Notes under the pieces: generated by a model
The model's database searches: none
What the model was told of the DNA's origin: nothing
The model's input: only the letters and a program-made list of their open reading frames with translations
In this document: positions 1-25,400 of the stretch, in pieces
Layout: each line of letters begins with the position of its first letter
How positions within the stretch are numbered: the stretch's first letter is position 1
Source of the DNA: a virus
Lineage: Duplodnaviria > Heunggongvirae > Uroviricota > Caudoviricetes
Length of the DNA stretch: 29,651 bases
Virus record (IMG/VR): IMGVR_UViG_2563366842_000009
Direction: 5' to 3' (one strand)
Program-made: the position numbers and the translations under genes

Positions 1-14
1 AACACGAGCAAACA

Positions 15-47
15 GATAAAAAAGGGCCAGCCAATTGGCCAGCCCTT
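15..47 (-). terminator. Near-palindromic hairpin (aagggccagccaattggccagccctt, 22..47) flanked by an A-run on the plus strand, i.e. a U-tract for minus-strand transcripts; candidate intrinsic terminator downstream of int or of a flanking host gene
   Basis: 11 of 13 stem positions pair when folded; aaaaaa immediately 5' on the plus strand. Confidence 0.4.
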
Positions 48-171
48 CTTAACAGGATGTCGCTTAAGCGAAACCTTAGTTAAGACGCTCCTATTAACAC
101 CCCATACCAAACAAGCACTTATCATATAAAACAACTAGTTAAAGTAATTTTTAATGCAATGAATTGCAGTG

Positions 172-1221
172 CTATGAAACCTCTGCCGCCACATTGTCGC
201 CAACATACAGCGATAACGGATTGAGGGTGACAGCTTGTTCAAGGTGGTCAGGAGCAAAGTGTGCATACTTCATTGTTTCTCGAATATTGGCATGCCCGAG
301 AATTTTCTGCAGCACCAGTATATTCCCGCCGTTCATCATAAAATGTGCACCAAAAGTATGACGCAAAACGTGCGTCTTCTGCCCTTCCGTCAATTCAATA
401 TTCGTTAGTTTGAGCATCTTTTTAAACTCCTGATAGCAGGGTTTAAACATTCTGCCTTGACGTTCGGACAACTCGTCGTACAGCCATTTAGGGATAGGAA
501 CTGTGCGATTCTTCTTACCTTTGGTTTTGGTGAACGTCAGTTTATATGGAGAAAGTTGCGGGCGGGTCAATCTCTCCGCTTCCCCCCATCGAGCGCCGGT
601 TGCAAGGCACACCTTAACAATCATGGTGAGGTCTTCTTTGCCGTATTGCTCGCAGGCTCGAAACAGCTCAGGGAGTTGAGACAAAGTCAGCCATGACATT
701 TCTTTCTCAGCTTCTTTGAATACTCGGATCCCATCAAGTGGATTGGGTAGGCTCCATTCCCCTAACCGGCGGAGCTCATTAAACACTGCTTCTAGGTATT
801 GTTGTTCGCGATTGACGGTTATAGGTTTGGCGATCCATTTCGAGGGGTCTTTATGATAACCATTGTCTATTTCACCACGTAATCGACGGTCACGATAATG
901 AGCCCAGTCTTTCGCGGTAAGGCGAGATGCAATCGGGTCGCCAAGTCCATTACATACGATTTGAAGCTTTGCAAACCTCGACTTACTGGCGACTAACGCT
1001 TGACCGTGCAAATTGTGCCAAAGCTGAATAATCTCGCTTAAGCGTCGGCGGTCTTCTTTCTTGCCGAGCCACGGCTTATCTTCACTCTCGCTTTTGGTAA
1101 ATGCTTCGAATGCCTCGGCCTCACCTTTGGTATTGAATTGCCGACGTATACGCCGCCCTTCTCTACCATTTGGATAGAGCTCGCATAACCATTTGCCATT
1201 TTTTTGCTTACTTACAGTCAT
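172..1221 (-). CDS. int: Phage integrase, tyrosine recombinase (P2/186 Int family)
   Basis: 349-aa ORF at the prophage end adjacent to the repressor; C-terminal catalytic region with LRHTFGAHF, LGH and a Tyr-containing tail typical of tyrosine recombinases. Confidence 0.9.
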   Translation of the reverse strand: MTVSKQKNGKWLCELYPNGREGRRIRRQFNTKGEAEAFEAFTKSESEDKPWLGKKEDRRRLSEIIQLWHNLHGQALVASKSRFAKLQIVCNGLGDPIASRLTAKDWAHYRDRRLRGEIDNGYHKDPSKWIAKPITVNREQQYLEAVFNELRRLGEWSLPNPLDGIRVFKEAEKEMSWLTLSQLPELFRACEQYGKEDLTMIVKVCLATGARWGEAERLTRPQLSPYKLTFTKTKGKKNRTVPIPKWLYDELSERQGRMFKPCYQEFKKMLKLTNIELTEGQKTHVLRHTFGAHFMMNGGNILVLQKILGHANIRETMKYAHFAPDHLEQAVTLNPLSLYVGDNVAAEVS

Positions 1222-1243: not shown

Positions 1244-1582
1244 TTATTCGCAAAGTGCTGTTGCGGCATCCATTACAGGATCCAAAGGAATTTTTACACC
1301 TGCATACTCTGGACTGTCTTTCCAAACAGCATCAATATTGCTCCCCTCAAGCTTTCCAGACTTTACTCCATCAATAGCAAAACCATTTAATGGGTATCGG
1401 TCATCAGTTGCTTTGTCGTACACAAAGGCATACTTACCGTTGACGCAAGACACCGTAGCTTTTTCAAAAGTTAACGGCCAATCATCACCAAACTTAGTGC
1501 CGTCTAAATCCTGTGTTTTTTCAGAGGCTAAGGAGCCAAAAGAAAAGGTAAGAAGCATAGCTAAAAAGAGTTTACGTTTCAT
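1244..1582 (-). CDS. Small secreted (signal-peptide) protein, cargo/moron between cI and int; function unknown
   Basis: Start taken at the internal Met (MKRKLFLAMLLTFSFGSLA|SE...) with an AAGGGA RBS 8 nt after the repressor stop; the track ORF extends to 1654 but that overlaps the repressor 3' end. Hydrophobic N-terminal signal peptide with an SLA cleavage-like site, no lipobox Cys. Local GC is visibly lower than the backbone. Confidence 0.6.
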   Translation of the reverse strand: MKRKLFLAMLLTFSFGSLASEKTQDLDGTKFGDDWPLTFEKATVSCVNGKYAFVYDKATDDRYPLNGFAIDGVKSGKLEGSNIDAVWKDSPEYAGVKIPLDPVMDAATALCE

Positions 1583-1590
1583 AATTTCCC

Positions 1591-2451
1591 TTATACGTGT
1601 TTTTCCAATGTGAAAACTACAACCCCGGCAGGCGTAATGTCGGTAATGTTGCATTCAAACTCAGCAGACTTATTTGACAACCTGACTTTTCCACCAGGTA
1701 AACGAATTACATCAAAAACATCAAGAGCGCCGTCGATATCAATTAACCAGCGGCCATTACTTATATTCGAAGCAGAACAGTCGACAAGCCAAGAGGCGGC
1801 CACACCGTCAACAAAAATCAATTCCCCTGAGTTAGAAGGAATCATTGAGGGGTCAGGCTGCCACGTTCCTGCGTCCTTAAGCTCACCAGATTCGAGGCGA
1901 GATTTTTTAATAGAAAAACCAGATGTGACACCTTCCCTGTTAGCTCGCATTTGCCCCTTGCCTGTTGCTAACCATTCCAGTGACGTATCGGTATCAAGAG
2001 CGCATGTAACAACAACATCACCGGGGAAAAAATCTCGCCTTACCCATGTGCTAATTGTGCCAGAGGAAATGCCGAGCAAATCACCAAGCTCCTTTTGCAT
2101 GGTAAAGCCGTACGCATCAAGAATCCTACGCAAAACGGTTTTACCACCATTCGTCATAATCTCGTCATAAAGCTCTTTGCCTTTTAACTTGCAACCGGCA
2201 CGCTCGCAATTTGCATTTGCAAGCTCTCCATTTACAAGCCAATTGATATCAGCTCCCGTGTCAAGACAACACCTAACTATGACGTTGCCAGGTATTGCAT
2301 CACGCTGAACCCAGCCGCTAACGCTGTGTTTAGCGATACCTAGCAGGTCAGCCAAATCCTTTTGCATCTTGACGCCATAGGCTGACATTAAGCGTTCCAA
2401 TACGCCGTTCGTTGCACTAACACGCCACTGAACATCAAGCTCAGAACTCAT
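1591..2451 (-). CDS. cI: CI-type immunity repressor (186 CI family) with a tandemly duplicated N-terminal HTH domain
   Basis: 286 aa. Two adjacent segments (about aa 16-78 and 106-166) are clearly paralogous (VLERLMSAYGVKMQKDLADLLGIAKHSVSGWVQRDAIPGNVIVRCCLDTGADINWLVNGE vs VLRRILDAYGFTMQKELGDLLGISSGTISTWVRRDFFPGDVVVTCALDTDTSLEWLATGK). The C-terminal part resembles the 186 CI C-terminal domain as I recall it (...WLVDI.GA......LPG.K......FEC...). Divergent from the Apl-like gene, upstream of int as in 186. Confidence 0.8.
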   Translation of the reverse strand: MSSELDVQWRVSATNGVLERLMSAYGVKMQKDLADLLGIAKHSVSGWVQRDAIPGNVIVRCCLDTGADINWLVNGELANANCERAGCKLKGKELYDEIMTNGGKTVLRRILDAYGFTMQKELGDLLGISSGTISTWVRRDFFPGDVVVTCALDTDTSLEWLATGKGQMRANREGVTSGFSIKKSRLESGELKDAGTWQPDPSMIPSNSGELIFVDGVAASWLVDCSASNISNGRWLIDIDGALDVFDVIRLPGGKVRLSNKSAEFECNITDITPAGVVVFTLEKHV

Positions 2452-2480
2452 AAAAACCCCTATAGATAATTTTATGGGTG

Positions 2481-2509
2481 TTTACAGAAAACTTTTTACG
2501 ATCTATAGT
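2481..2509 (+). promoter_or_regulatory. Candidate lytic promoter (pR analogue): -35 TTTACA (2481..2486), 17-bp spacer, -10 TATAGT (2504..2509)
   Basis: Sigma70-like hexamers with canonical spacing in the cI/apl divergent intergenic region, about 65 nt upstream of the ATG at 2573, which has an AGGAG RBS. Confidence 0.5.
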
Positions 2510-2572
2510 GGCGTTCATCGACCAAGATGCACACCACTGCACTACATTTCAAACAACAGGAGATAATGCGAT

Positions 2573-2926
2573 ATGTCAGATGCAAAATCAATCCCGCTGC
2601 ATGACACACAAAACTTACAAAATCAAACTGTATTGCTAGACGCTGGTCAGTTCAACGCGCTTGTAACCATGATGCAGCTATCCATGCAAAACATGATTCG
2701 TACAGCGATGTTAGACACCATGTCAGTAAAAGACTTCGCCGCCGCCCGTGGCGTTAGCGAGCGTCTGGTCTGGCAATGGATTGATGAGGGCGTCCTTCTC
2801 AAAGCTCCCACCAAAGATGTTACCAGCAAAGAAAAAGCCGCTAAGCGTAGCCGCACCCTTATCAACGTCAAAGCATGGCGTGACAAACTGACCCAGCAAG
2901 CTATCGATTGCCGTTATATCAACTAA
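2573..2926 (+). CDS. Apl/Cox-like small DNA-binding regulator/excisionase (putative)
   Basis: First gene of the rightward early operon, divergent from cI, the position occupied by apl in 186 and cox in P2. Contains an HTH-like segment (VKDFAAARGVSERLVWQWIDEG). No close recalled match, so assignment rests on position. Confidence 0.5.
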   Translation: MSDAKSIPLHDTQNLQNQTVLLDAGQFNALVTMMQLSMQNMIRTAMLDTMSVKDFAAARGVSERLVWQWIDEGVLLKAPTKDVTSKEKAAKRSRTLINVKAWRDKLTQQAIDCRYIN

Positions 2927-2976
2927 CAGTCATCGCTTAACTGAACTTGATTTTGCAAGTTAAAGGGAGTTACAGC

Positions 2977-3486
2977 ATGTTAGATTTTCGTGTTTCGTCA
3001 CATGCGCACTTTGACGAGGCCTGCAGAAAATTCGCAGCTACTCATAACGTGAAAGAACTAGCGAATAAAGCCGGAATCAAGCCGCATACGCTTTACAACA
3101 AACTCAACCCAGAACAGCCGCACCAGTTAACGCCGCGTGAAATCTGGACACTGACAGACCTGACCGAAGACTCGACTCTCGTCGATGGTTTTCTGGCGCA
3201 GATCCATTGTCTGCCATGCGTACCGGTCAACGAGCTGGCAAAAGAGAAATTGCAATCCTACGTCATGCACGCAATGAGTGAACTAGGCGAACTGGCAAGC
3301 GGTGCAGTTTCCGGCGACCGCCTCACGCCAGCCAAAAAACAAAACATGATTGCTAGCGTAAATGCGGGGATTCGCATGTTGTCATTATCGGCAATGGCGC
3401 TGCATGCACGCCTGCAGACTAATCCCGCTATGTCGAGCGTAGTCGATACTATGAGCGGTATTGGCGCATCGTTTGGTCTGATTTGA
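2977..3486 (+). CDS. cII: CII-like lysogeny-establishment transcriptional activator (186 CII family)
   Basis: Start chosen at ATG 2977 with AAGGGAG RBS, giving 169 aa. Strong similarity to 186 CII as recalled (LNPEQPHQ.TP, TDLTEDSTLVDGFLAQIHCLPCVPVNELAK, C-terminal NPAMSSVVDTMSGIGASFGLI). Confidence 0.85.
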   Translation: MLDFRVSSHAHFDEACRKFAATHNVKELANKAGIKPHTLYNKLNPEQPHQLTPREIWTLTDLTEDSTLVDGFLAQIHCLPCVPVNELAKEKLQSYVMHAMSELGELASGAVSGDRLTPAKKQNMIASVNAGIRMLSLSAMALHARLQTNPAMSSVVDTMSGIGASFGLI

Positions 3487-3908: not shown

Positions 3909-3974
3909 TTAATTAAACGTAATTACTTGGCGTAAACCCGCCGGGCATTCTTTTGCCAAAAATCAGGAGGATAT

Positions 3975-4208
3975 ATGAGTCGAACTATTTATTTATCAAC
4001 GCCGAGTAGTGCTGGCGACCACGTGCTGGAGTCTTTGTTTAAAGAAGCCAAAAAAGAAGAGCGCAAAGACCGCGCTCTCGCCGTTTCAATCCGTCTCGAA
4101 GCTCTGGCCGTTCACATTACCAATTCAGATATGACCGGCAAAGAAGCGGCCGAACTGTTGCGCCGTGAAGCAGCCCGCTTTGAGAACGAGTCACAGGAGC
4201 TGCACTAA
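3975..4208 (+). CDS. Hypothetical early protein (77 aa)
   Basis: AGGAGG RBS before ATG 3975; stop overlaps the next start (TAATG), indicating translational coupling. Confidence 0.6.
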   Translation: MSRTIYLSTPSSAGDHVLESLFKEAKKEERKDRALAVSIRLEALAVHITNSDMTGKEAAELLRREAARFENESQELH

Positions 4209-4429
4209 TGGCCGACGCAATTGATTTAGCACAACAGCGTGAGCAGGAAGACCGCGAGCGCCACATCAGCAACGCGCGCAGCCGTATCGCTGCGCCCTCT
4301 CGCTTCCTCTGCGAAGAATGTGACGCACCAATCCCGGAAGCTCGCCGCATTGCGATTCCGGGCGTGGCCTTTTGCGTGACATATCAGCAAATCGCGGAGC
4401 TCAAACACAAACACTACAGGGGCGTTTAA
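4208..4429 (+). CDS. TraR/DksA-family zinc-finger protein (P2 Orf82-like)
   Basis: 73 aa with CEEC...FCVT Cys motif and an N-terminal acidic coiled region; similar small proteins are conserved in P2-like early operons (recalled). Confidence 0.6.
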   Translation: MADAIDLAQQREQEDRERHISNARSRIAAPSRFLCEECDAPIPEARRIAIPGVAFCVTYQQIAELKHKHYRGV

Positions 4430-4819
4430 ATGGTTAATAAACACTTAACAGACAAGCGCGCGCGTCTGCGCAGGGCCGCTCAAGACTACCAATCTACATT
4501 ATCGTGGTATCAAGAAAACCTCGATAGTCCAAATGCAGAACAGGATTGCGATGAGGCAACCGCGGCATTTAAGCGCGAAATCGGCCATCGAGAGACAGAC
4601 ATTATTGCTGACCTGTTGGATGAAATAGACGAGCTCCGGGAATACCGAAAAGCTCGCATTGTTCCTGATGGCTGGATAGCAGTACCTTCGGAGCCTACTG
4701 GCGATATGCTGGCGCGAATCAAGCTTTCTGATATTTGGACAACCGAAGCGCTAACCACCAGATACAAAGACATGCTACGCGCCGCCCCTCGCGCGCCATA
4801 TGAGGGGATAAACAAATGA
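4430..4819 (+). CDS. Hypothetical early protein (129 aa)
   Basis: Translationally coupled ORF in the early operon. Confidence 0.55.
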   Translation: MVNKHLTDKRARLRRAAQDYQSTLSWYQENLDSPNAEQDCDEATAAFKREIGHRETDIIADLLDEIDELREYRKARIVPDGWIAVPSEPTGDMLARIKLSDIWTTEALTTRYKDMLRAAPRAPYEGINK

Positions 4820-5088
4820 GCATTAATATCAGTATTGGCGACAAATGGGTTATTACCAGCGACCAGTATCAATTCATCCTGAATGAAAAGAAGGTCGTTA
4901 AGTCTGGTAAAAAAGCTGGCGAGGAATGGCTCGACACCATCGGTTATTACCCCAAGATTAACCAGCTTATTTCCGGGCTGATTCATCATCATATTCAGCA
5001 GTCATCAATTACCACGCTTGACGCAATGGCATCTGAAATTGAGCGTATCGGAGAAATGTGCGCCTCCTCTATCAAGGCGGCGACATGA
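4816..5088 (+). CDS. Hypothetical early protein (90 aa)
   Basis: ATGA overlap with the preceding ORF; coupled early-operon position. Confidence 0.55.
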   Translation: MSINISIGDKWVITSDQYQFILNEKKVVKSGKKAGEEWLDTIGYYPKINQLISGLIHHHIQQSSITTLDAMASEIERIGEMCASSIKAAT

Positions 5089-5366
5089 GAAAAACACATC
5101 AACTAAAAATTCGGCCTGAGTTTTTTCAGGCTGTCATCAATGGAACGAAAAAAGCCGAGTTTCGTCTTGCTGACCGTGCTTTTGCTGTAGGGGATTTACT
5201 TTGCTTAAACGAGTATGGCCACTGCGAGTATGACCCGCAAAAGGTCGGGTTTACAGGGGCATTTGTCTACGTGCTGGTGACTCATGTAACTGACCTTAGC
5301 GAGTGGGCTCCTGGCTATGTGATGCTAAGCATACAGCGTAGGCAAATGGGGGAACTATGCGGGTAA
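5085..5366 (+). CDS. ASCH/DUF3850-like small protein
   Basis: Start at ATG 5085 (AAGGCGG RBS); the N-terminus (HQLKIRPEFFQAVINGTKKAEFRL.DR.F.VGD) resembles the ASCH-like DUF3850 fold as recalled. Confidence 0.55.
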   Translation: MRKTHQLKIRPEFFQAVINGTKKAEFRLADRAFAVGDLLCLNEYGHCEYDPQKVGFTGAFVYVLVTHVTDLSEWAPGYVMLSIQRRQMGELCG

Positions 5367-7591
5367 GCGTTAATTATGCTTACCCGTGGAACACTCCACG
5401 GTCGGCAATAGCCAGCCCATATCTTACCTATAACCAACAGCATCGCCGCGACCGTATGTTCGCGGCTTTGCTGCATGCGAGAAAGGTGCTTTCTCTGCAG
5501 CCTGAGTGCGTGCGATTTGACGTTTATCGCACCGCTGAAGTGCTGGAACAAAATCAGGGCAGTCAACGAGCCAATGCTTTTTTAATCAACTTCTGCAAAA
5601 AGGCATTGCCGCGTCTTGAACTGGTCGCAAAAAAATATGAGTGTGCAGGCATTAGCAGCGATGTATCAGGCGCTGTTTTCGGTGGTCATTTCGATACGAA
5701 ATATATGCAGTATCTGGCATCACGTATGGTCAATATGGTCGCCAGATACAACCGCCTCCCGGATATGTCGCGTGCCGACATTGACCTGCTTTCTGCTGAT
5801 ATCGCTAATTTTATTCGTGCTGAACTGGCAGAACATGATGACGCTGATTCACATTTCGGCGAGTTGGCGACATTACATGGCTGGTACATGCGCGCCGGAT
5901 TAATTGCGCTGCAATTTGGTGTTACTCCTCCTCATTGGGCGGGACTGACAACAAAATACTTTGACCAGGACAAAGCGGCGCCAGCAATCATGCGCATGTT
6001 TAATGAGGTTTGGTGGCGTGGCCGTCTGCGACGCATTGCTGCGTCATGGCGCGAACATCTGCAAATTGCAGTCGGTAATGTCAGCAAAAAACGACACGCC
6101 TACGCGAGTAAAAATTGTGTGACCGACTGGCGCGAGCAGAAGCGCCGCACGCGTGAATTTCTCAAAGGGCTGGATCTCGAAGACGAAGACGGCAACCGCA
6201 TCAGCCTGATTGAAAAATATGATGGCTCGGTCGCCAACCCTGCGATACGTCGCTGCGAGCTGATGACCCGCATCCGTGGGTTTGAAAATATCTGTAATGA
6301 ACTCGGTTATGTCGGGGAGTTTTACACCCTGACCGCGCCGTCTAAATATCACGCCACAACTAAAGCAGGCTACCGTAACAGCAAATGGAACGGAGCCAGC
6401 CCGTCGGACACGCAGAGTTATCTCACTGGCCTTTGGGCGCGCATACGCGCCAAGCTACACCGTGAAGAAATCCGCATTTTCGGCATCCGTGTTGCCGAGC
6501 CTCATCACGACGGGACGCCTCACTGGCACATGCTTATGTTTATGCTGCCGGAAGACGTTGAGCGTGTGCGCCTCATTATTCGCGATTATGCGTGGGAGGA
6601 AGACCACCACGAACTGAGAAGCGATAAAGCCAAAAAGGCACGTTTTCATGCCGAAGCCATTGACCCGGAAAAGGGCAGCGCTACCGGCTATGTCGCTAAA
6701 TACATTTCCAAAAACATCGACGGATATGCTCTTGATGGTGAAACCGATGACGAAAGCGGTGAGCTGCTGAAAGAGACAGCTCCCGCCGTATCAGCATGGG
6801 CGGCGCGCTGGCACATCCGTCAGTTCCAGTTTATCGGCGGTGCGCCGGTGACGGTCTACCGTGAATTACGTCGTCTCGCTGATACCGAGACCGCGCACGG
6901 TCTGAGCGTTGAGTTTGCTGCCGTCCATGATGCCGCTGACGCCGGTGACTGGGCTGGTTACGTTAATTCGCAGGGTGGTCCGTTTGTCCGTCGCGATGAT
7001 TTACAGGTGCGCACGCTGTATGAGCCGCGCCCCGAGTTTAACCAGTATGGTGAGGAAACCGTCTGCATTCGTGGCGTCTACGACTCTGCTGTCGGTGCTG
7101 GCACCCCGATTTTAACCCGGTTAACGCAGTGGAAAATTGTGCCGAAGCGTGCCGTTGATTTGGCCGTTGACGTTAAGGGCGCTCCTGCGCCCTCTCGGAG
7201 TTCTGTCAATAACTGTACGGGAAGCGAAAGCGATCCACCGGAACTCGATTTATCAAAACCCCTGAGTCGACGTGAAAGACGAGAGCTGACCAACCGACTC
7301 AGGAAGCAAAAGCCAGCAATACGGCGAAAATTCATCCACGGAACGGATGAGCAAAACGCAGCTATAGCTAAAACTATCGACGAGATACAACTGACAACCG
7401 GCATTACAATCGGCCGTGGCGAAGCCCTGCACCTGATGGCCGGTGGTAAAAGTTGTTTTGATGGCAAATGGCTACGCGGAACGGCCAAAGGAGAAATATT
7501 CTTAGCAGCACCATCGCATCAGGCTAAGGCTAGAAAAATCCTTTATCGTGTTGCTGCGATGGCTGAGGCATCAAAACCAATGCCTGAGTAA
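5357..7591 (+). CDS. A: Rolling-circle replication initiator endonuclease (P2 gpA family)
   Basis: 744 aa. HUH-type metal-binding motif (TPHWHMLMF) and catalytic tyrosine motif (GYVAKYISKNIDG) characteristic of P2 A / phiX174 A-type replicases; size and position match P2 gpA. Confidence 0.9.
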   Translation: MRVSVNYAYPWNTPRSAIASPYLTYNQQHRRDRMFAALLHARKVLSLQPECVRFDVYRTAEVLEQNQGSQRANAFLINFCKKALPRLELVAKKYECAGISSDVSGAVFGGHFDTKYMQYLASRMVNMVARYNRLPDMSRADIDLLSADIANFIRAELAEHDDADSHFGELATLHGWYMRAGLIALQFGVTPPHWAGLTTKYFDQDKAAPAIMRMFNEVWWRGRLRRIAASWREHLQIAVGNVSKKRHAYASKNCVTDWREQKRRTREFLKGLDLEDEDGNRISLIEKYDGSVANPAIRRCELMTRIRGFENICNELGYVGEFYTLTAPSKYHATTKAGYRNSKWNGASPSDTQSYLTGLWARIRAKLHREEIRIFGIRVAEPHHDGTPHWHMLMFMLPEDVERVRLIIRDYAWEEDHHELRSDKAKKARFHAEAIDPEKGSATGYVAKYISKNIDGYALDGETDDESGELLKETAPAVSAWAARWHIRQFQFIGGAPVTVYRELRRLADTETAHGLSVEFAAVHDAADAGDWAGYVNSQGGPFVRRDDLQVRTLYEPRPEFNQYGEETVCIRGVYDSAVGAGTPILTRLTQWKIVPKRAVDLAVDVKGAPAPSRSSVNNCTGSESDPPELDLSKPLSRRERRELTNRLRKQKPAIRRKFIHGTDEQNAAIAKTIDEIQLTTGITIGRGEALHLMAGGKSCFDGKWLRGTAKGEIFLAAPSHQAKARKILYRVAAMAEASKPMPE

Positions 7592-7664
7592 TTCATATCC
7601 ATATCATGCACATACAGCAATCACCCTATTCATTTTTTTCTTCCCATCTTTTACCAATACGTGC

Positions 7665-7684
7665 TACTGTATAAACATACAGTA
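7665..7684. promoter_or_regulatory. LexA (SOS) box TACTGTATAAACATACAGTA
   Basis: Perfect CTGT-N8-ACAG dyad with flanking TA/TA, about 20 nt upstream of a GGGAGGG RBS and ATG 7705; corresponds in position to the LexA-controlled p95/tum promoter of 186. Confidence 0.8.
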
Positions 7685-7704
7685 CACCCTATGGGAGGGA
7701 TTTC

Positions 7705-7887
7705 ATGGTTGGCGAACATTTCAGCCGAACGCAGCAAAAGTGGGCTTGTGTGCAATTTATCGCCGAGGTATCTCTGATTGCAAACTGCAAGCCATCAGAC
7801 TTAAAGCTCGCGCTCACTCTCATTGCAGACCTAGCAAACAGCGAAAATAACGAAACCGAAGATGATATTTTTTATAAGGCTGATTAG
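7705..7887 (+). CDS. SOS-operon ORF 1 (60 aa), possible N-terminal part of a Tum-like antirepressor
   Basis: Immediately downstream of the LexA box with a strong RBS; ends at TAG 7885..7887, in the same frame as the DinI-like ORF that starts one codon later. Confidence 0.55.
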   Translation: MVGEHFSRTQQKWACVQFIAEVSLIANCKPSDLKLALTLIADLANSENNETEDDIFYKAD

Positions 7888-7890
7888 ATT

Positions 7891-8124
7891 ATGAGAATCA
7901 ATATCACGTTGGATAAAGAGCAAAAAATTAGTCAGGCAACGTTGGATGCACTAGAGGCTGAGCTGTACCGCAATCTTCAACCTATTTACCCAAAGACTGC
8001 TATCCGCATTCGCAAGGGCTCCGCAAATGGTGTTGAGCTAAGCGGTTTGAAACTGGACGAAGATAAAAAACGAGTAATGGAAATCATGCAGCAAGTATGG
8101 GAAGACGATAGCTGGCTGCATTAA
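7891..8124 (+). CDS. DinI-family protein (Tum C-terminal-like module)
   Basis: 77 aa aligning along its length with E. coli DinI as recalled (MRI.[IV]T..K......A.DAL..EL.R......P......R.......LS........K.R..EI.Q..WE....W); low-GC region. Confidence 0.8.
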   Translation: MRINITLDKEQKISQATLDALEAELYRNLQPIYPKTAIRIRKGSANGVELSGLKLDEDKKRVMEIMQQVWEDDSWLH

Positions 8125-8130
8125 TAAACG

Positions 8131-8165
8131 CCGCCAGCGCTGAAACTCGCTTTCAGTGCTGGCGG
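8131..8165. terminator. Hairpin between convergent genes (15-bp stem with 1 mismatch, loop ctcgc); candidate bidirectional terminator
   Basis: ccgccagcgctgaaa / tttcagtgctggcgg inverted repeat located between the DinI-like stop (8124) and the stop of the minus-strand 312-aa gene (8198). Confidence 0.5.
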
Positions 8166-8197
8166 GGTTGAACAACGAGCTACGCGAGGCGTTAGTG

Positions 8198-9136
8198 TTA
8201 ATTTAGTTTTAATGAATGGTACTCAACCGAGTCGACCTTAGATTTGATATATGTACAATCATTTACAGAGAGTAATGCTGCTAGTAAGCGACATACCAGA
8301 GCCTGCATTTCTCGTAATATATCATCACCATATTGACCGCCATTAACACTGGAGAAACCAAGCGGTTGACCATAGAAAATAGCCTCATGAAAATTATCAT
8401 TGCGGATGGTTGTAATATTTTTTTTGCCTGTTACCCATGAAGGACGTGGTATGCCATAGGTTTCGCACAGCCACTTTAACCGCCTGGAATGATTTAACGT
8501 TTTTTCAGGGCACTTGTTTTTTTCTGCCCACGCTAAAGCAAAGCAACCATCCAATGCCATATAAAGATAATGGAACTTTTCAAATGAAAGGTATTGTGGG
8601 TTGTGAGATAAAAATAGTGCGTGCACCACTGCCGCTATTTTTATTGGTGATTTCTCTTTTTTTTGCTCGCTAGATATGTAATTGAGAGCCAATTCTATGA
8701 TTGCTTTTTCAGAGCATCTGCCGAGAGTAAAGTCTGTTAACTTAGCAGGCTTGATGGGGGTTGCATCTAAAAAACCAGCTTCGGTGGTTGTTAATCTCAT
8801 CCCCCTGAAAAAAGACAGGCACCACACAACAAAGTTGAGAGTTTCTAGCGAGGATGTATTTTTTAATTTTAGTATGTGCGTTTTTGGTAATCCGAATACT
8901 CGGCAACTATAAGGCATTGTGGATATGCCGCCATTAAAGTTATATATCTCTTGGTTTCCGGGGTATATCCAGCCATTAACAACATTTTTGTCATTGTTAA
9001 CGCGCTCTACTTTCTCAGCGAGGCCGGGTAAAGTAAGTAAAGAAAAATTTTCAGTCTCAATGTTAACTTCTACTGGATAGTATCCAAACTCAGATCCAAT
9101 CTCATCGGGCTGCTGTTCGGTAACTTCACCTTGCAT
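8198..9136 (-). CDS. Orphan 312-aa protein in the A-cos accessory hotspot; candidate anti-phage defence or abortive-infection protein, function unknown
   Basis: Good RBS (GGAG 6 nt before ATG at 9136); low GC relative to the phage backbone; no signal peptide or obvious transmembrane segment; occupies the old/tin position of P2. Contains an R-N-x-x-x-H motif (RNDNFH, 8387..8404), which is only weak evidence for a HEPN-like RNase. Confidence 0.7.
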   Translation of the reverse strand: MQGEVTEQQPDEIGSEFGYYPVEVNIETENFSLLTLPGLAEKVERVNNDKNVVNGWIYPGNQEIYNFNGGISTMPYSCRVFGLPKTHILKLKNTSSLETLNFVVWCLSFFRGMRLTTTEAGFLDATPIKPAKLTDFTLGRCSEKAIIELALNYISSEQKKEKSPIKIAAVVHALFLSHNPQYLSFEKFHYLYMALDGCFALAWAEKNKCPEKTLNHSRRLKWLCETYGIPRPSWVTGKKNITTIRNDNFHEAIFYGQPLGFSSVNGGQYGDDILREMQALVCRLLAALLSVNDCTYIKSKVDSVEYHSLKLN

Positions 9137-9373
9137 ATCTTTCTCCGTTCAAAAATAGGCTCGATAGTTATGGAGAGGCTATCATGTTTGGAAATAGCCA
9201 ATGTTCGTGATTTTTGTAAATTTAAGGTGATTTATCAATAAATAAGCTGTGCATGCAACAGGTGCATGGTTTTGCATGCGTCAGGCTTGCCCGTTCTGGT
9301 AGTGCGCCGCCAGAGCTGGCACGGATCCAGAGTGGTCATGCAACTGCATTAAAACCGACCCATAAAGCGGGCA

Positions 9374-9392
9374 GGCGTGGCGGGGAAAGCAT
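9374..9392. other. Candidate cos site (19-nt cohesive-end sequence GGCGTGGCGGGGAAAGCAT)
   Basis: Matches the 186 cohesive-end sequence as I recall it, differing at 2 of 19 positions from the recalled P2 cos; lies about 180 bp downstream of the portal gene Q, as expected for P2-family phages. Confidence 0.6.
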
Positions 9393-9533
9393 TGCGCGCC
9401 AGAGGTGGTGCGTAATAATAAAAATTATCGTCTGAGCGCGCCATGATGGCGCGTTTATGGTCGCTTTCGATTCGTTGGTGGTTGGGTGTGGTAGTGCGCG
9501 TGCGGCGCGTCTGAGGCGTGATGGTGGCGGGGT

Positions 9534-9557
9534 ATGAAAAAACCGCCATAATGGCGG
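9534..9557 (-). terminator. Short hairpin (ccgcc-ataat-ggcgg) followed by a U-run on the minus strand; candidate terminator of the leftward P-Q operon
   Basis: Immediately downstream of the Q stop on the minus strand; plus-strand aaaaaa gives a T6 tract on the minus strand. The stem is short (5-6 bp). Confidence 0.4.
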
Positions 9558-9569
9558 CTTGAGGGGGAG

Positions 9570-10616
9570 TTATTCCGGGTTATCGAGGGTGTACTCTTTG
9601 AACCTGATGACCTCCATGCCGAGCCAGTCGTTTACCTCCCTGAACCTGTCCTGCAGCGGCGACAGCTCGTTACGCACAAATACCTTTGCCACCTTCTCAA
9701 CGTCACCGAGCGAGCCGATATTCTCGGGCTTACCGCCCATTAGCTGGAAAGGTACGCGGTGCGCATCCATCAGGTCGGCGGCACTGGCTTTCTTGATATT
9801 GAAAAAGTCATCCTTTGTGGCGACCTCGCTCAGTGGCACGATTTTTATGCCGTCCGGTTTTCCACCGGGGGCGTAGAAAAACAGGTTCTTAAAGTTGCCG
9901 AGCCCTTTCGAGTTGCGCATCGCCTCGCGTAGTGATTCGACGTCGGTCGCACTCTGCGCCGGGTCGGTTACATACATGATGTAACCCGCGTGCGCGCCGT
10001 TCTGGTAATACTTGCGGCGGAACAGCGTTGCGGATTCATTCAGCCAGGCAGAATTAAGCGCGCTGAGATATTCCGGCAGGCCGTAAATCTCCTGATTAAT
10101 GTCAGGCTCCAGCAGGTGAAACACGGTATCAGGCGCGAACTCATGCGGCTGAGTGAAGTTTTCCACAAACCAGAAAATTGAATCATCAACCCCACGGCGG
10201 GTGTATTTTGCTGGTGATGCCAGCAACTTGATTAACTGGCCGGTGACGCTGTGGCGCTGCTCAAGAAAAGCGTTGCCGAAGACCAGATAGTCGAGCGCAA
10301 AACGGCTGAAATCCTGACGGGACAGCAGCGGGTGCGGAATGTAGGTGCTCGCGAGCACGTTGCGTTTAACGTAAATCGGTGAGCTGTGATGCACGGCAGA
10401 GCGCAGGCTCTTTGCCAGCCCGGAAAAGCTGACCGGCGGCTCGTACCATTTGCCGTTACTGATGCACTCGACATAATCCAGAATGTCGCGCTTATCGAGC
10501 ACCGGAACTGGCTCACCGAAGGTGAACGCTTCCATTTTTTGCGGTGCGCTGGCTTTCAGTTGCTGTGGTGCGCGTGTTTTCTGCGCGGCGGCTTTGCGGG
10601 ATTTTTGCTTACCCAT
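9570..10616 (-). CDS. Q: Portal protein (P2 gpQ family)
   Basis: 348 aa; extensive recalled similarity to P2 Q (MEAFTFGEPVPVLD.RDILDYVECISNG.WYEPPVSF.GLAKSLR.AVHHSSPIYVKRN.LAST...). Start overlaps the stop of P. Confidence 0.95.
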   Translation of the reverse strand: MGKQKSRKAAAQKTRAPQQLKASAPQKMEAFTFGEPVPVLDKRDILDYVECISNGKWYEPPVSFSGLAKSLRSAVHHSSPIYVKRNVLASTYIPHPLLSRQDFSRFALDYLVFGNAFLEQRHSVTGQLIKLLASPAKYTRRGVDDSIFWFVENFTQPHEFAPDTVFHLLEPDINQEIYGLPEYLSALNSAWLNESATLFRRKYYQNGAHAGYIMYVTDPAQSATDVESLREAMRNSKGLGNFKNLFFYAPGGKPDGIKIVPLSEVATKDDFFNIKKASAADLMDAHRVPFQLMGGKPENIGSLGDVEKVAKVFVRNELSPLQDRFREVNDWLGMEVIRFKEYTLDNPE

Positions 10617-12385
10617 TAGTTGAACTCCAGAATAGATTTAGGCTGCATGCCGCTACCGGCAGAAAGCGGTTCGTTTAACAGGGCGTGCATGGTCGCCCAT
10701 GCGATATCGGCGTGACTGGCTTCCTCGGTGCGGCTGGCCTCGTAGGTGGCACTGCGCCCGCTGCTGGTCATGGTTTTGCGAATAGACATAAACGACTGCG
10801 TGACGTCGGTTGCCCCGGCGTCGTACTCCAGACAGCCACGGCGAATGGTGTCTTTCGCCTTGAGTACCATCGCGGTTTTCATCTCAGGTGTGTAACGGAT
10901 GCCGCGTGCTGCCGGGTAGAATGAGCGCACCAACTGGAACACGCCGAGGCCGAGGCCGGTTGCGTCAATGCCGATGTATTCGACGTTGTATTTCTCGGTC
11001 AGCTTGCGGATGCCCTCTGCCTGCGCGGCAAAGTCCATGCCCTTCCACTGGTGGCGCTCCAGCATGCGGAACTTGCCACCCGAGACCACCGGCGGCGCGA
11101 GCACGACGCACCCGGCACTGTCGCCAGTGTGCGACGGGTCGTAGCCAATCCAGACCGGGCGAGAGCCGAAAGGATGGTCGGCGAACGGGGCAAAATCCTC
11201 CCATTCTTCCATCACATCGACCATGCAGCGCTGCAGCTCCTCGAACGGGAATACCGATGCCTTATCGTCGACAAACTCGCACATAAACAGGTTTTTAAAA
11301 TCATCATCACTGTTTTCGCGTTTGAGCTGGTCGAGGTCGAACAGGGTGCAGCCCCCGGCAAGGGCGTCCTCAATGGTGACAATCTGCCGCCACTGGCCAT
11401 CGTCGCAGAGCTGACCACCGGCGAGCGCGCGGTGACTGATGTCGATTTCGATGCGGTCAGCGGCACTGGCGCGCCCCTTGTTGAACAGCTCACCCGACCA
11501 GAAGGGGTAAGCCCCGTGCGCCAGTGTTGAGGGGGTCGAAAAGTAGGTTGAGCGCAGGTGCTTCTGCGATGCCATGCCCGAGGCGACTTTGCGCAGTTTC
11601 TGAAAGTTCGGGATCCAGAATATTTCATCGACATACAGGTCGCCGTTATGGCTCTGCGCGGTGTTGGAATTGGTACCGAGAAAAATCAGTTTTGCGCCGT
11701 TGTTGCCGATGACAATTGGGTCGCCGGTCAGGTCGACGTCGACCAGTCGCGCAAACTGGATGATGTATTCGCGGAACACGTAAGCCTGCGTTTTACTGGC
11801 TGACAGAAATATCTGGTTATGGCCGGTTTTGAGCGCGCGCAGCAGCGCCTCGCGGGAGAAATAGAACGTCGCGCCAATCTGGCGTGATTTGAGAATGTCG
11901 CGAATACGGTGTTCCAGCCCTGCGCGGTACCACTGCAACTGATACTCGAAAGACTGGTCGAAAAATAATTCCTCCAGTTTCTCGATAGCCTCGTCGCTGA
12001 AAAAATTCTTTTTCGGCTTTTTGCGCTCCCCTTTGTTGCGGTTGGCGACGTTGGGGTTAAGGTCGGCCTCGTTGCCGGTCTGGCTGTAGCGGTTGACGCG
12101 CGCCAGCCGCTCAATCTGCCGCCCGAGCAGGTCAATCTCTTTGAAATCGCCGCCTGTCTTTTGCGGCTTGGCGATGAGCTGAATCAGCCTGGCCTCAAGG
12201 CTGCTTTCAACGCGGGAAATCGGCGCGATGCCGTCCCAGCCGTCGCGCTGCTTCCAGCTCTGCACGGTCGGGCGCTTGACCTGCAGCATTTCGGCAATCT
12301 GTGGCACGGAAAAGCCCTGCCAGTAAAGCAGCGATGCCTGTCGTCGCGGGTCATGCAACAAGGTTGTATCGGTGGAAATGGTCAT
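10616..12385 (-). CDS. P: Terminase large (ATPase) subunit (P2 gpP family)
   Basis: 589 aa, size and sequence consistent with P2 P; divergent from O as in P2. Confidence 0.9.
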   Translation of the reverse strand: MTISTDTTLLHDPRRQASLLYWQGFSVPQIAEMLQVKRPTVQSWKQRDGWDGIAPISRVESSLEARLIQLIAKPQKTGGDFKEIDLLGRQIERLARVNRYSQTGNEADLNPNVANRNKGERKKPKKNFFSDEAIEKLEELFFDQSFEYQLQWYRAGLEHRIRDILKSRQIGATFYFSREALLRALKTGHNQIFLSASKTQAYVFREYIIQFARLVDVDLTGDPIVIGNNGAKLIFLGTNSNTAQSHNGDLYVDEIFWIPNFQKLRKVASGMASQKHLRSTYFSTPSTLAHGAYPFWSGELFNKGRASAADRIEIDISHRALAGGQLCDDGQWRQIVTIEDALAGGCTLFDLDQLKRENSDDDFKNLFMCEFVDDKASVFPFEELQRCMVDVMEEWEDFAPFADHPFGSRPVWIGYDPSHTGDSAGCVVLAPPVVSGGKFRMLERHQWKGMDFAAQAEGIRKLTEKYNVEYIGIDATGLGLGVFQLVRSFYPAARGIRYTPEMKTAMVLKAKDTIRRGCLEYDAGATDVTQSFMSIRKTMTSSGRSATYEASRTEEASHADIAWATMHALLNEPLSAGSGMQPKSILEFN

Positions 12386-14552: not shown

Positions 14553-15305
14553 ATGACGAGTCCCGCACAGCGTCACATGATGCGGGTCTCGGCCTCTCAA
14601 GCCGCGCAGCGGGAGCAAGCCCCGCTGCGCCATGCAACCGCCTATGAGCAGATGCTGGTTAAGCTGGCCGATGACCGTCGCACGTTAAAAAACATCCGTT
14701 CAAACGAACGTAAAGCCGAGAAAAAGCGCGAGCTGCTGCCGTTCTATGCGCCGTGGGTCGCCGGTGTGCTGGCTGATGGCCGTGGTGCGCAGGATGACAT
14801 TGTCATGACCGTCATGCTGTGGCGTCTCGATGCCGGTGATATCGCTGGCGCGCTGGAAATTGCCCCCTACGCGCTGAAATACGGCCTCACTTCTGACCAT
14901 CGCCGCACCACACCTTACATGCTGGTTGAGGAAGTGGCACTTGCCTCGCAGCGTCTGCGCGATGCCGGTGAGTCTGTCGACCTTTCCTGGCTGCAGACCA
15001 CTATCGACCTGACCGACGGCGCAGACGTTCCCGATATGGTGCGCGCCCGTCTGCATAAGGTGACAGGCCTGACCCTGCGTGATGCCGGTATGAATGCAGA
15101 GGCGCTGGCGCAGTTTCAGCGCGCGATGCAGCTCGACCGCAATGCCGGTGTGCGCAAGGAGATTGAGCGACTGGAACGGGCATTGAAGCCAAAGCCAGAG
15201 GCCGCACCCCGTAAAACGACTAAACCGCGCACGCGCAAACCTGCCACCAGACCGGCAGCAAAGCGCGGGCGTCCACCAAAGGCGGCAAAACCGCCGGTTA
15301 ACTGA
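14553..15305 (+). CDS. M: Terminase small / endonuclease subunit (P2 gpM family)
   Basis: 250 aa with a basic Pro/Lys/Arg-rich C-terminal tail; position after N as in P2. Confidence 0.85.
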   Translation: MTSPAQRHMMRVSASQAAQREQAPLRHATAYEQMLVKLADDRRTLKNIRSNERKAEKKRELLPFYAPWVAGVLADGRGAQDDIVMTVMLWRLDAGDIAGALEIAPYALKYGLTSDHRRTTPYMLVEEVALASQRLRDAGESVDLSWLQTTIDLTDGADVPDMVRARLHKVTGLTLRDAGMNAEALAQFQRAMQLDRNAGVRKEIERLERALKPKPEAAPRKTTKPRTRKPATRPAAKRGRPPKAAKPPVN

Positions 15306-25064: not shown

Positions 25065-25400
25065 ATGGCAAAAGCACCACGCAAAACCCCTGAATTTGTT
25101 GACCCGGCTGGCAATGAAATTGACACCGTAAACCCGAATGTCGTGACCCTCGACAAGCCGATTAAGCGTGCTGGTCAGACGATTGAAAAGGTCACCCTGA
25201 TTGAACCGAACGCAGGCACCCTGCGCGGCGTCAGTCTGGCGGCAGTGGCGCAGTCCGAGGTCGATGCGCTGATTAAGGTGCTGCCCCGCATGACCTACCC
25301 GGCACTCACCACGCAGGAACTTACCGCAATGAACCTGCCCGATATGCTGTCACTGGCCGCTAAGGTGATTGGTTTTTTGTCACCGGCTTCGGCGGAATAG
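25065..25400 (+). CDS. E: Tail assembly chaperone E (zero-frame product)
   Basis: 111-aa ORF between the tube and tape-measure genes, containing the slippery heptamer TTTTTTG near its 3' end. Confidence 0.85.
   Translation: MAKAPRKTPEFVDPAGNEIDTVNPNVVTLDKPIKRAGQTIEKVTLIEPNAGTLRGVSLAAVAQSEVDALIKVLPRMTYPALTTQELTAMNLPDMLSLAAKVIGFLSPASAE

Follow-up and report, generated by a model that had tools for sequence, protein, structure and literature searches.

Terminases of the P2 family act on circular monomers, and the cohesive-end site (cos) core that P4-type satellites have in common with these phages lets the satellites be packaged. The lambda cos is a functional analogue, in that 5' cohesive ends arise from a staggered terminase cut and the prophage form carries the site internally, but it differs in its 12-nt overhang, its unrelated sequence and terminase, and its concatemeric substrate. 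In this report, we analyze a cos site in a 29,651-nt stretch of DNA from a viral record (IMGVR_UViG_2563366842_000009; "the window" refers to this whole stretch). The site is the 19-mer GGCGTGGCGGGGAAAGCAT at positions 9374-9392 on the plus strand, and it is very probably the cos of a 186/PSP3-like (Eganvirus, Peduoviridae) prophage inserted into an E. coli-type chromosome at the rplS 3' end.

The cos sites of the closest described phages are annotated in GenBank. Bases 1-19 of the record of coliphage 186 (Eganvirus ev186; U32222, also NC_001317) are labeled [quoted passage not shown], and bases 1-19 of the record of Salmonella phage PSP3 (AY135486) are labeled cos, "identical to 186 cos". Both records open with ggcgtggcggggaaagcat, which is also the sequence quoted for the PSP3 and SEN1 cos (PMC5261728). 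The P2 record (AF063097) opens with ggcgaggcggggaaagcac, annotated as cosL, and the P4 sequence equals that of P2; the P2 cohesive ends are quoted in PMC3931495, and the shared P2/P4 cos core is restated in PMC9122126. A conserved cos region of 55 bp is described in PMC3931495 as needed for packaging, a requirement for which both this paper and PMC9122126 cite Ziermann & Calendar 1990.

We took the annotations of U32222 and AY135486, together with PMC5261728 and PMC3931495, as the published sequences with which to compare the window. The 19-mer is identical at 19 of 19 positions to the annotated cos of both 186 and PSP3, whereas the P2/P4 cos (GGCGAGGCGGGGAAAGCAC) differs at positions 5 (A, versus T in the window) and 19 (C versus T). 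The window therefore carries the 186/PSP3 allele and not the P2/P4 allele. An earlier note on this DNA had placed an intact cohesive end of the 186 type, rather than the P2 type, at these coordinates downstream of Q. All of these elements are borne out: the 19-mer is present exactly there, the published 186 sequence is identical and that of P2 differs at 2 of 19 positions, and the portal gene, the homologue of P2 Q, has its stop codon 177 bp from the site, which lies downstream of it.

The 19-mer occurs once in the window, with no second copy even when up to three mismatches are allowed. Because it is rich in G, and because the 19-mer pattern is also present outside a cos context in a few unrelated genomes, a chance occurrence was considered. 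However, only about 2e-7 exact matches are expected by chance in 2 x 29.6 kb, shuffled sequence yielded a mean of 0.02 matches at three or fewer mismatches, and about 300 bp of homology to 186 and PSP3 surrounds the 19-mer. The match statistics and this flanking homology rule out a chance match, whose probability we regard as negligible.

The position of the site is likewise that of a cos. It lies within a 433-bp intergenic stretch, between a leftward open reading frame (ORF) of 312 codons (8198-9136) and the leftward portal gene (9570-10616), and its distance from the portal stop codon is close to that in 186 (176 bp), PSP3 (178 bp) and P2 (167 bp). A megablast search with positions 9140-9580 against 50,697 phage records matched 186/PSP3-like phages, and record position 1 of 186 (U32222), PSP3 (AY135486), SEN1 and Erwinia phage EtG aligns with window position 9374 (query base 235). 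The features of the site and its surroundings are as follows.

Positions 9249-9373, plus strand: left cos flank, matching 186 at 119 of 125 positions and PSP3 at 106 of 125, gapless.
Positions 9250-9262, 9273-9285 and 9337-9344 (to 9346), left of cos: repeated TGCATGCAAC, TGCATGCGTC and CATGCAAC motifs.
Positions 9338-9399, plus strand: conserved cos core, -36 to +26 from base 1 of the 19-mer (ATGCAACTGCATTAAAACCGACCCATAAAGCGGGCA, 19-mer, TGCGCGC), from a conservation profile of 80 sites.
Positions 9344-9399: 56-bp core, matching PSP3 at 56/56, 186 at 55/56, P2 at 49/56 and P4 at 49/56 positions.
Positions 9374-9392, plus strand: cos 19-mer, assigned by identity to the annotated 186/PSP3 cos and expected to give 19-nt 5'-protruding cohesive ends.
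Positions 9393-9569, plus strand: right cos flank, extending to the stop codon of the portal gene, matching 186 at 152 of 178 positions and PSP3 at 159 of 178.
Positions 9437-9453: perfect 8-bp inverted repeat CGCGCCAT-G-ATGGCGCG, 45 bp right of cos, conserved.
Positions 9536-9562, minus strand: intrinsic terminator of the portal/terminase operon, with a hairpin (9540-9549/9551-9560) and then a T run on the minus strand.

To compare the flanks, the window was aligned with the circularized junctions of 186, PSP3 and P2 and with the uncut cos regions of three other phage records. Homology among 186-type phages begins about 125 bp left of the cut (GTGCATGCAACAGGTGCAT, window position ~9249), at the end of the variable cargo region, and continues to the portal gene. 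The flanks are 85-95% identical to those of 186 and PSP3 and lack disruptive indels; with the near-perfect 56-bp core, this agrees with the description of the site as intact. The terminator aligns with the annotated "terminator tW" of 186 (164-187) and is homologous to it.

The core at 9338-9399 presumably constitutes the region of terminase recognition and cleavage. By analogy with the 186 annotation, nicks are predicted between 9373 and 9374 on the top strand and between 9392 and 9393 on the bottom strand. The repeats in the left flank and the inverted repeat on the right, which are recognizable in 186 and PSP3 and partly in P2, may be binding elements for terminase or a host factor. Two ORFs of 60-66 codons cross cos (9253-9435 on the plus strand and 9349-9549 on the minus strand), and their counterparts are labeled "hypothetical protein" in related records (for example, 613R3, BIS20 and E. 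coli ET979). These ORFs are most likely spurious gene calls over a noncoding packaging site.

To assess conservation of the flanks more broadly, one genome per bacterial species was scanned for GGCGWGGCGGGGAAAGCAY, and a profile was built from the 80 sites with a cos-type left flank and complete flanks. Since the 19-mer is fixed by the search pattern, only conservation in the flanks is informative. Between -36 and +26, the window has the consensus nucleotide at every position that is at least 80% conserved among these cos-context sites. The alleles found in cos context are T..T (186-type, 40 sites), A..C (P2-type, 33 sites) and a hybrid, A..T (8 sites), the last in Mangrovibacter, Edwardsiella, Kosakonia and Atlantibacter; T..C was seen outside cos context only. 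A reverse-oriented portal gene is near 23 of the 40 T..T sites, typically about 180 bp away, as in the window. For many cos-context sites, no portal gene was seen in the vicinity, and such sites are probably P4-like satellites.

The existence of such sites, and the presence in P4 of the same conserved core, raise the question of whether this cos belongs to a P4-like satellite instead of a helper-type prophage. Yet the portal gene, both terminase genes and a full structural set in 186 order flank the site, the P4 allele is A..C, and no P4-type genes (alpha primase, sid, psu or delta) are present. This gene content rules out a satellite origin, to which we assign only a minute probability. The cognate packaging genes are the following.

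Positions 9570-10616, minus strand: portal gene (homologue of P2 Q and the 186 portal gene), 348 aa, 94.5% identical to 186 and PSP3; Pfam Phage_portal, E 5e-13.
Positions 10616-12385, minus strand: terminase large subunit (TerL; homologue of P2 P and 186 Orf12), 589 aa, full length, 98.5% identical to 186 Orf12 and 97.8% to PSP3 P.
Positions 14553-15305, plus strand: terminase small subunit (TerS; homologue of P2 M and 186 R), 250 aa, full length, 98.0% identical to 186 R and 94.7% to PSP3 M.

The large subunit contains the Pfam domains Terminase_5, Terminase_6N and Terminase_6C, and the small subunit matches Phage_term_smal (E 3.7e-40). All annotated 186 and PSP3 proteins were compared with the window by tblastn. 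The genes for scaffold, capsid, head completion, lysis, tail completion, baseplate, sheath, tube, E, tape measure, U and D are full length, with 80-100% identity, and the programmed-frameshift site of E/E' is intact (slippery heptamer TTTTTTG at 25373). The tail fiber and its assembly protein are divergent in their C-terminal parts, as is usual. All seven hallmark proteins listed for Peduoviridae (L, M, N, O, P, Q and T; PMC13100340) are full length and 80-100% identical to those of 186/PSP3. Thus, the morphogenetic genes within the window are complete, as the earlier note had held. The order of gene A (5357-7591), tumA/B, cargo gene, cos and portal is the same as in 186, PSP3 and P2.

Identity of the 19-mer and its flanks to characterized phages, the position of the site and the intact cognate packaging genes together identify it as cos; that it is active in this lysogen would follow by analogy with those phages. 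The site itself is a textbook element in a textbook position, with nothing novel about it.

The modules that would integrate, maintain and induce the prophage lie left of cos, as listed here.

Positions ~75-90, no strand: attL core (CTTAGTTAAGACGCTC), about 16 bp, at the terminus of host rplS (L19).
Positions 172-1221, minus strand: integrase, 91% identical to PSP3 and 51% to 186.
Positions 1244-1654, minus strand: DUF2511 gene.
Positions 1591-2451, minus strand: CI repressor, 286 aa, 98.6% identical to PSP3 CI and 33% to 186 CI over 176 residues (C-terminal part).
Positions 2573-2926, plus strand: 117-aa protein, standing in for Apl, with a weak match to Cox-like excisionases/repressors (phrog_575, E 6e-5).
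Positions 5058-5366, plus strand: small ASCH/DUF3850 protein (PUA-like, RNA-binding type), upstream of and overlapping the gene A ORF.
Positions 7665-7684, plus strand: perfect LexA box TACTGTATAAACATACAGTA, preceding tumA; a LexA site is annotated at the corresponding position in 186.
Positions 7705-7887, plus strand: tumA, 100% identical to PSP3.
Positions 7891-8124, plus strand: tumB/DinI-like gene, 98.7% identical to PSP3; the match to the DinI model is below the cut-off.

Prophage-free E. coli genomes match window positions 1-90, ending in rplS, and homology to PSP3 and SEN1 starts at position 75, which places the attL core at about 75-90; bases 1-74, to its left, are host sequence downstream of yfiB. 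Owing to the overlap of the core with the stop codon and 3' end of rplS, integration regenerates the terminus of this gene. A similar prophage occupies the yfiB-rplS site in 68 of 5,426 complete E. coli genomes. A tRNA scan of the window was negative, so the prophage has not integrated in a tRNA gene, whereas 186 uses the ileY tRNA gene. A scan of the whole window with Rfam detected no RNA family.

The immunity region (1244-3486) is where the earlier note needs correction, because it had described both CI and CII as 186-type. For CI, this label does not hold: the protein, in which Pfam recognizes two tandem CI-type HTH stretches and a CI C-terminal domain, is nearly identical to that of PSP3 and only distantly similar to that of 186. 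Moreover, no Apl homologue was detected in the window by tblastn, and a homologue of PSP3 orf30 (99%) is present instead. CII is 99% identical to that of PSP3 and 81% to that of 186. Judged by its sequence, the immunity region is of the PSP3 type and not the 186 type, although still within Eganvirus. The note's LexA-boxed tum-like locus was found as described, with a perfect box ahead of tumA/tumB, and tum is split as in PSP3. The box and these two genes appear to form an SOS induction module. The ASCH/DUF3850 gene stands in the place of 186 orf84.

Comparison with 186 and PSP3 shows a mixed relationship. Like 186, the window has the 19-mer, a nearly unchanged 56-bp core and left flank, almost the same gap to the portal stop codon, a homologous tW, and TerL and TerS at 98% identity. 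It differs from 186 in its right flank (85% identity), in its immunity region (CI at 33%; apl in 186) and in its integration site. With PSP3 and its relative SEN1, it shares the 19-mer and the whole 56-bp core, and its immunity, integration and induction modules are the same as in PSP3 (CI 98.6%, Int 91%, tumA 100% and tumB 98.7%). It differs from PSP3 in the C-terminus of the tail fiber. We therefore classify the element, on its gene sequences, as a PSP3-type Eganvirus with 186-like late genes. The likeness to P2 and P4 extends to the 19-nt 5' overhang, to a core of the form TGCATTAAAACCG.CCC....AAGCGGGC. / 19-mer /.GCGCGC, and to a cos that neighbors both the portal gene and a cargo hotspot (PMC9122126, PMC3931495). 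In contrast, positions 5 and 19 of the 19-mer and 7 of the 56 core positions differ, and the flanks beyond the core are largely unrelated.

The accessory genes around cos and portal also vary among these phages. The cargo slot near cos holds orf97 in 186 and orf37/orf38 in PSP3, and the 312-aa gene in the window. The portal and large terminase genes of the window adjoin at position 10616 with no extra ORF between them, whereas 186 (W, 1215-1961) and PSP3 (orf2) have an additional ORF of 747 bp there; Klebsiella phage RCIP0057 and Yersinia phage MDG94-186 likewise lack it. The product of this extra ORF resembles part of terminase (about 35% identity to residues of the window TerL). In the closest E. 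coli relatives, a hypothetical gene of about 1 kb lies between cos and portal (Escherichia phage vB_EcoM-613R3, 1973-2977; E. coli ET979, 3923-4906), which suggests a second cargo slot flanking cos on its right side. The window has no insertion in this interval (9393-9569).

Several observations weigh against assigning the site to a 186/PSP3-like prophage with a working cos. The last feature in the window is the gene D stop codon (29651), such that the late activator gene (B/ogr/pag) and attR lie outside it; within this extent, 186 B and PSP3 pag have no tblastn match. An identical prophage was not found among the 5,426 complete E. coli genomes, where the best matches cover 89% of positions 7600-9700 at 88% identity and carry an extra gene between cos and portal. 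Also, the right flank beyond the 56-bp core is only 85-89% identical to those of 186 and PSP3.

Some of these points would fit a defective (cryptic) prophage, in which an intact cos persists as a relic that is never used and no particles are made. The late activator gene and attR, being outside the window, could be missing or damaged, and no identical element was seen among isolated phages, the closest being about 90% identical. Nothing in the window supports such a defect, however. Genes for packaging, head, tail, lysis, replication, immunity and integration are full length and about 80-100% identical to those of functional phages, the programmed-frameshift site is intact and the attL junction is clean. 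In addition, the estimated genome size of about 30 kb (window positions 75-29651 plus about 0.4-0.5 kb outside) matches those of 186 (30,624 bp) and PSP3 (30,636 bp). We therefore consider a defective prophage improbable, and it is plausible from the gene content that the 186/PSP3-like prophage is potentially functional.

On the circular map, att and cos occupy separate positions, and for this reason cos stays internal and uncut in such a prophage. Use of the site would begin with LexA cleavage, which would de-repress tumA/tumB and thereby lead to inactivation of the PSP3-type CI. Excision by Int at the att core would follow, and the excised prophage would be replicated as circles by the A protein. 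Terminase (14553-15305 and 10616-12385) would bind the conserved core of about 60 bp around cos, and introduce nicks immediately 5' of G9374 in the top strand and immediately past 9392 in the bottom strand. The virion chromosome expected from this is linear, about 30 kb long and bounded by single-stranded 5' cohesive ends of 19 nt. Packaging of this chromosome would take place through the portal, whose gene is 177 bp from cos, and its ends would re-circularize it after injection.

A low-GC, single-gene cargo lies on the left side of cos.

Positions 8198-9136, minus strand: cargo ORF, 312 aa, 39% G+C versus about 55% for the backbone.

This gene occupies the cos-proximal slot between gpA and gpQ, where P2 has old/tin, and this slot is the defense hotspot of Rousset et al. 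(PMC9122126). Searches with the single sequence and with profiles found no match to the encoded protein in Pfam, PADLOC, NCBIfam or PDB. The protein belongs to phrog_5937, a family of unknown function, and seven phage records encode homologues, among them the P2-EC67 variable-region record. A further 695 homologues occur in bacteria, including Enterobacterales; all are called "hypothetical" and are about 316 aa long. Homologues in Aeromonas, Pseudomonas, Acinetobacter, Xanthomonas and Stenotrophomonas are about 50% identical. The Aeromonas homologue is a solitary chromosomal gene, and one in P. aeruginosa is part of an island, with an OLD-TOPRIM ATPase and UvrD-helicase pair (Gabija-like) about 3 kb away.

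Among 48 diverse homologues of the cargo protein, R245, N246 and H250 are invariant. The segment R245-N246-D-N-F-H250 has the form RNxxxH, an Rx4H motif of the HEPN type that falls within the Rx4-6H pattern of HEPN proteins. An AlphaFold model based on the homologue alignment has a pLDDT of 82 and a pTM of 0.84 (pLDDT 33 for the single-sequence model), and a Foldseek search against PDB gave nothing significant. The protein probably consists of a β-rich N-terminal domain and a HEPN-like (Rx4H) C-terminal domain. It is reasonable, though unproven, to propose that the protein acts by itself as an abortive-infection effector of the HEPN type. It is possible, although somewhat unlikely, that this uncharacterized and widespread family represents a new stand-alone abortive-infection/anti-phage RNase in the cos-proximal hotspot of the P2 family.

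The identification of this cos leaves current understanding of such sites unchanged, and its value lies in what it defines for this element. Since cos fixes the ends of the virion chromosome, the phage genome can be defined as running from 9374 around the excised circle to 9392, which is useful for annotation. The combination of cos with intact genes for packaging, morphogenesis and SOS induction suggests that the prophage could be inducible, and it could serve as a helper for P4-type satellites with the shared cos core. Finally, cos marks the right-hand boundary of a known cos-proximal cargo/defense hotspot, which here holds an uncharacterized gene.
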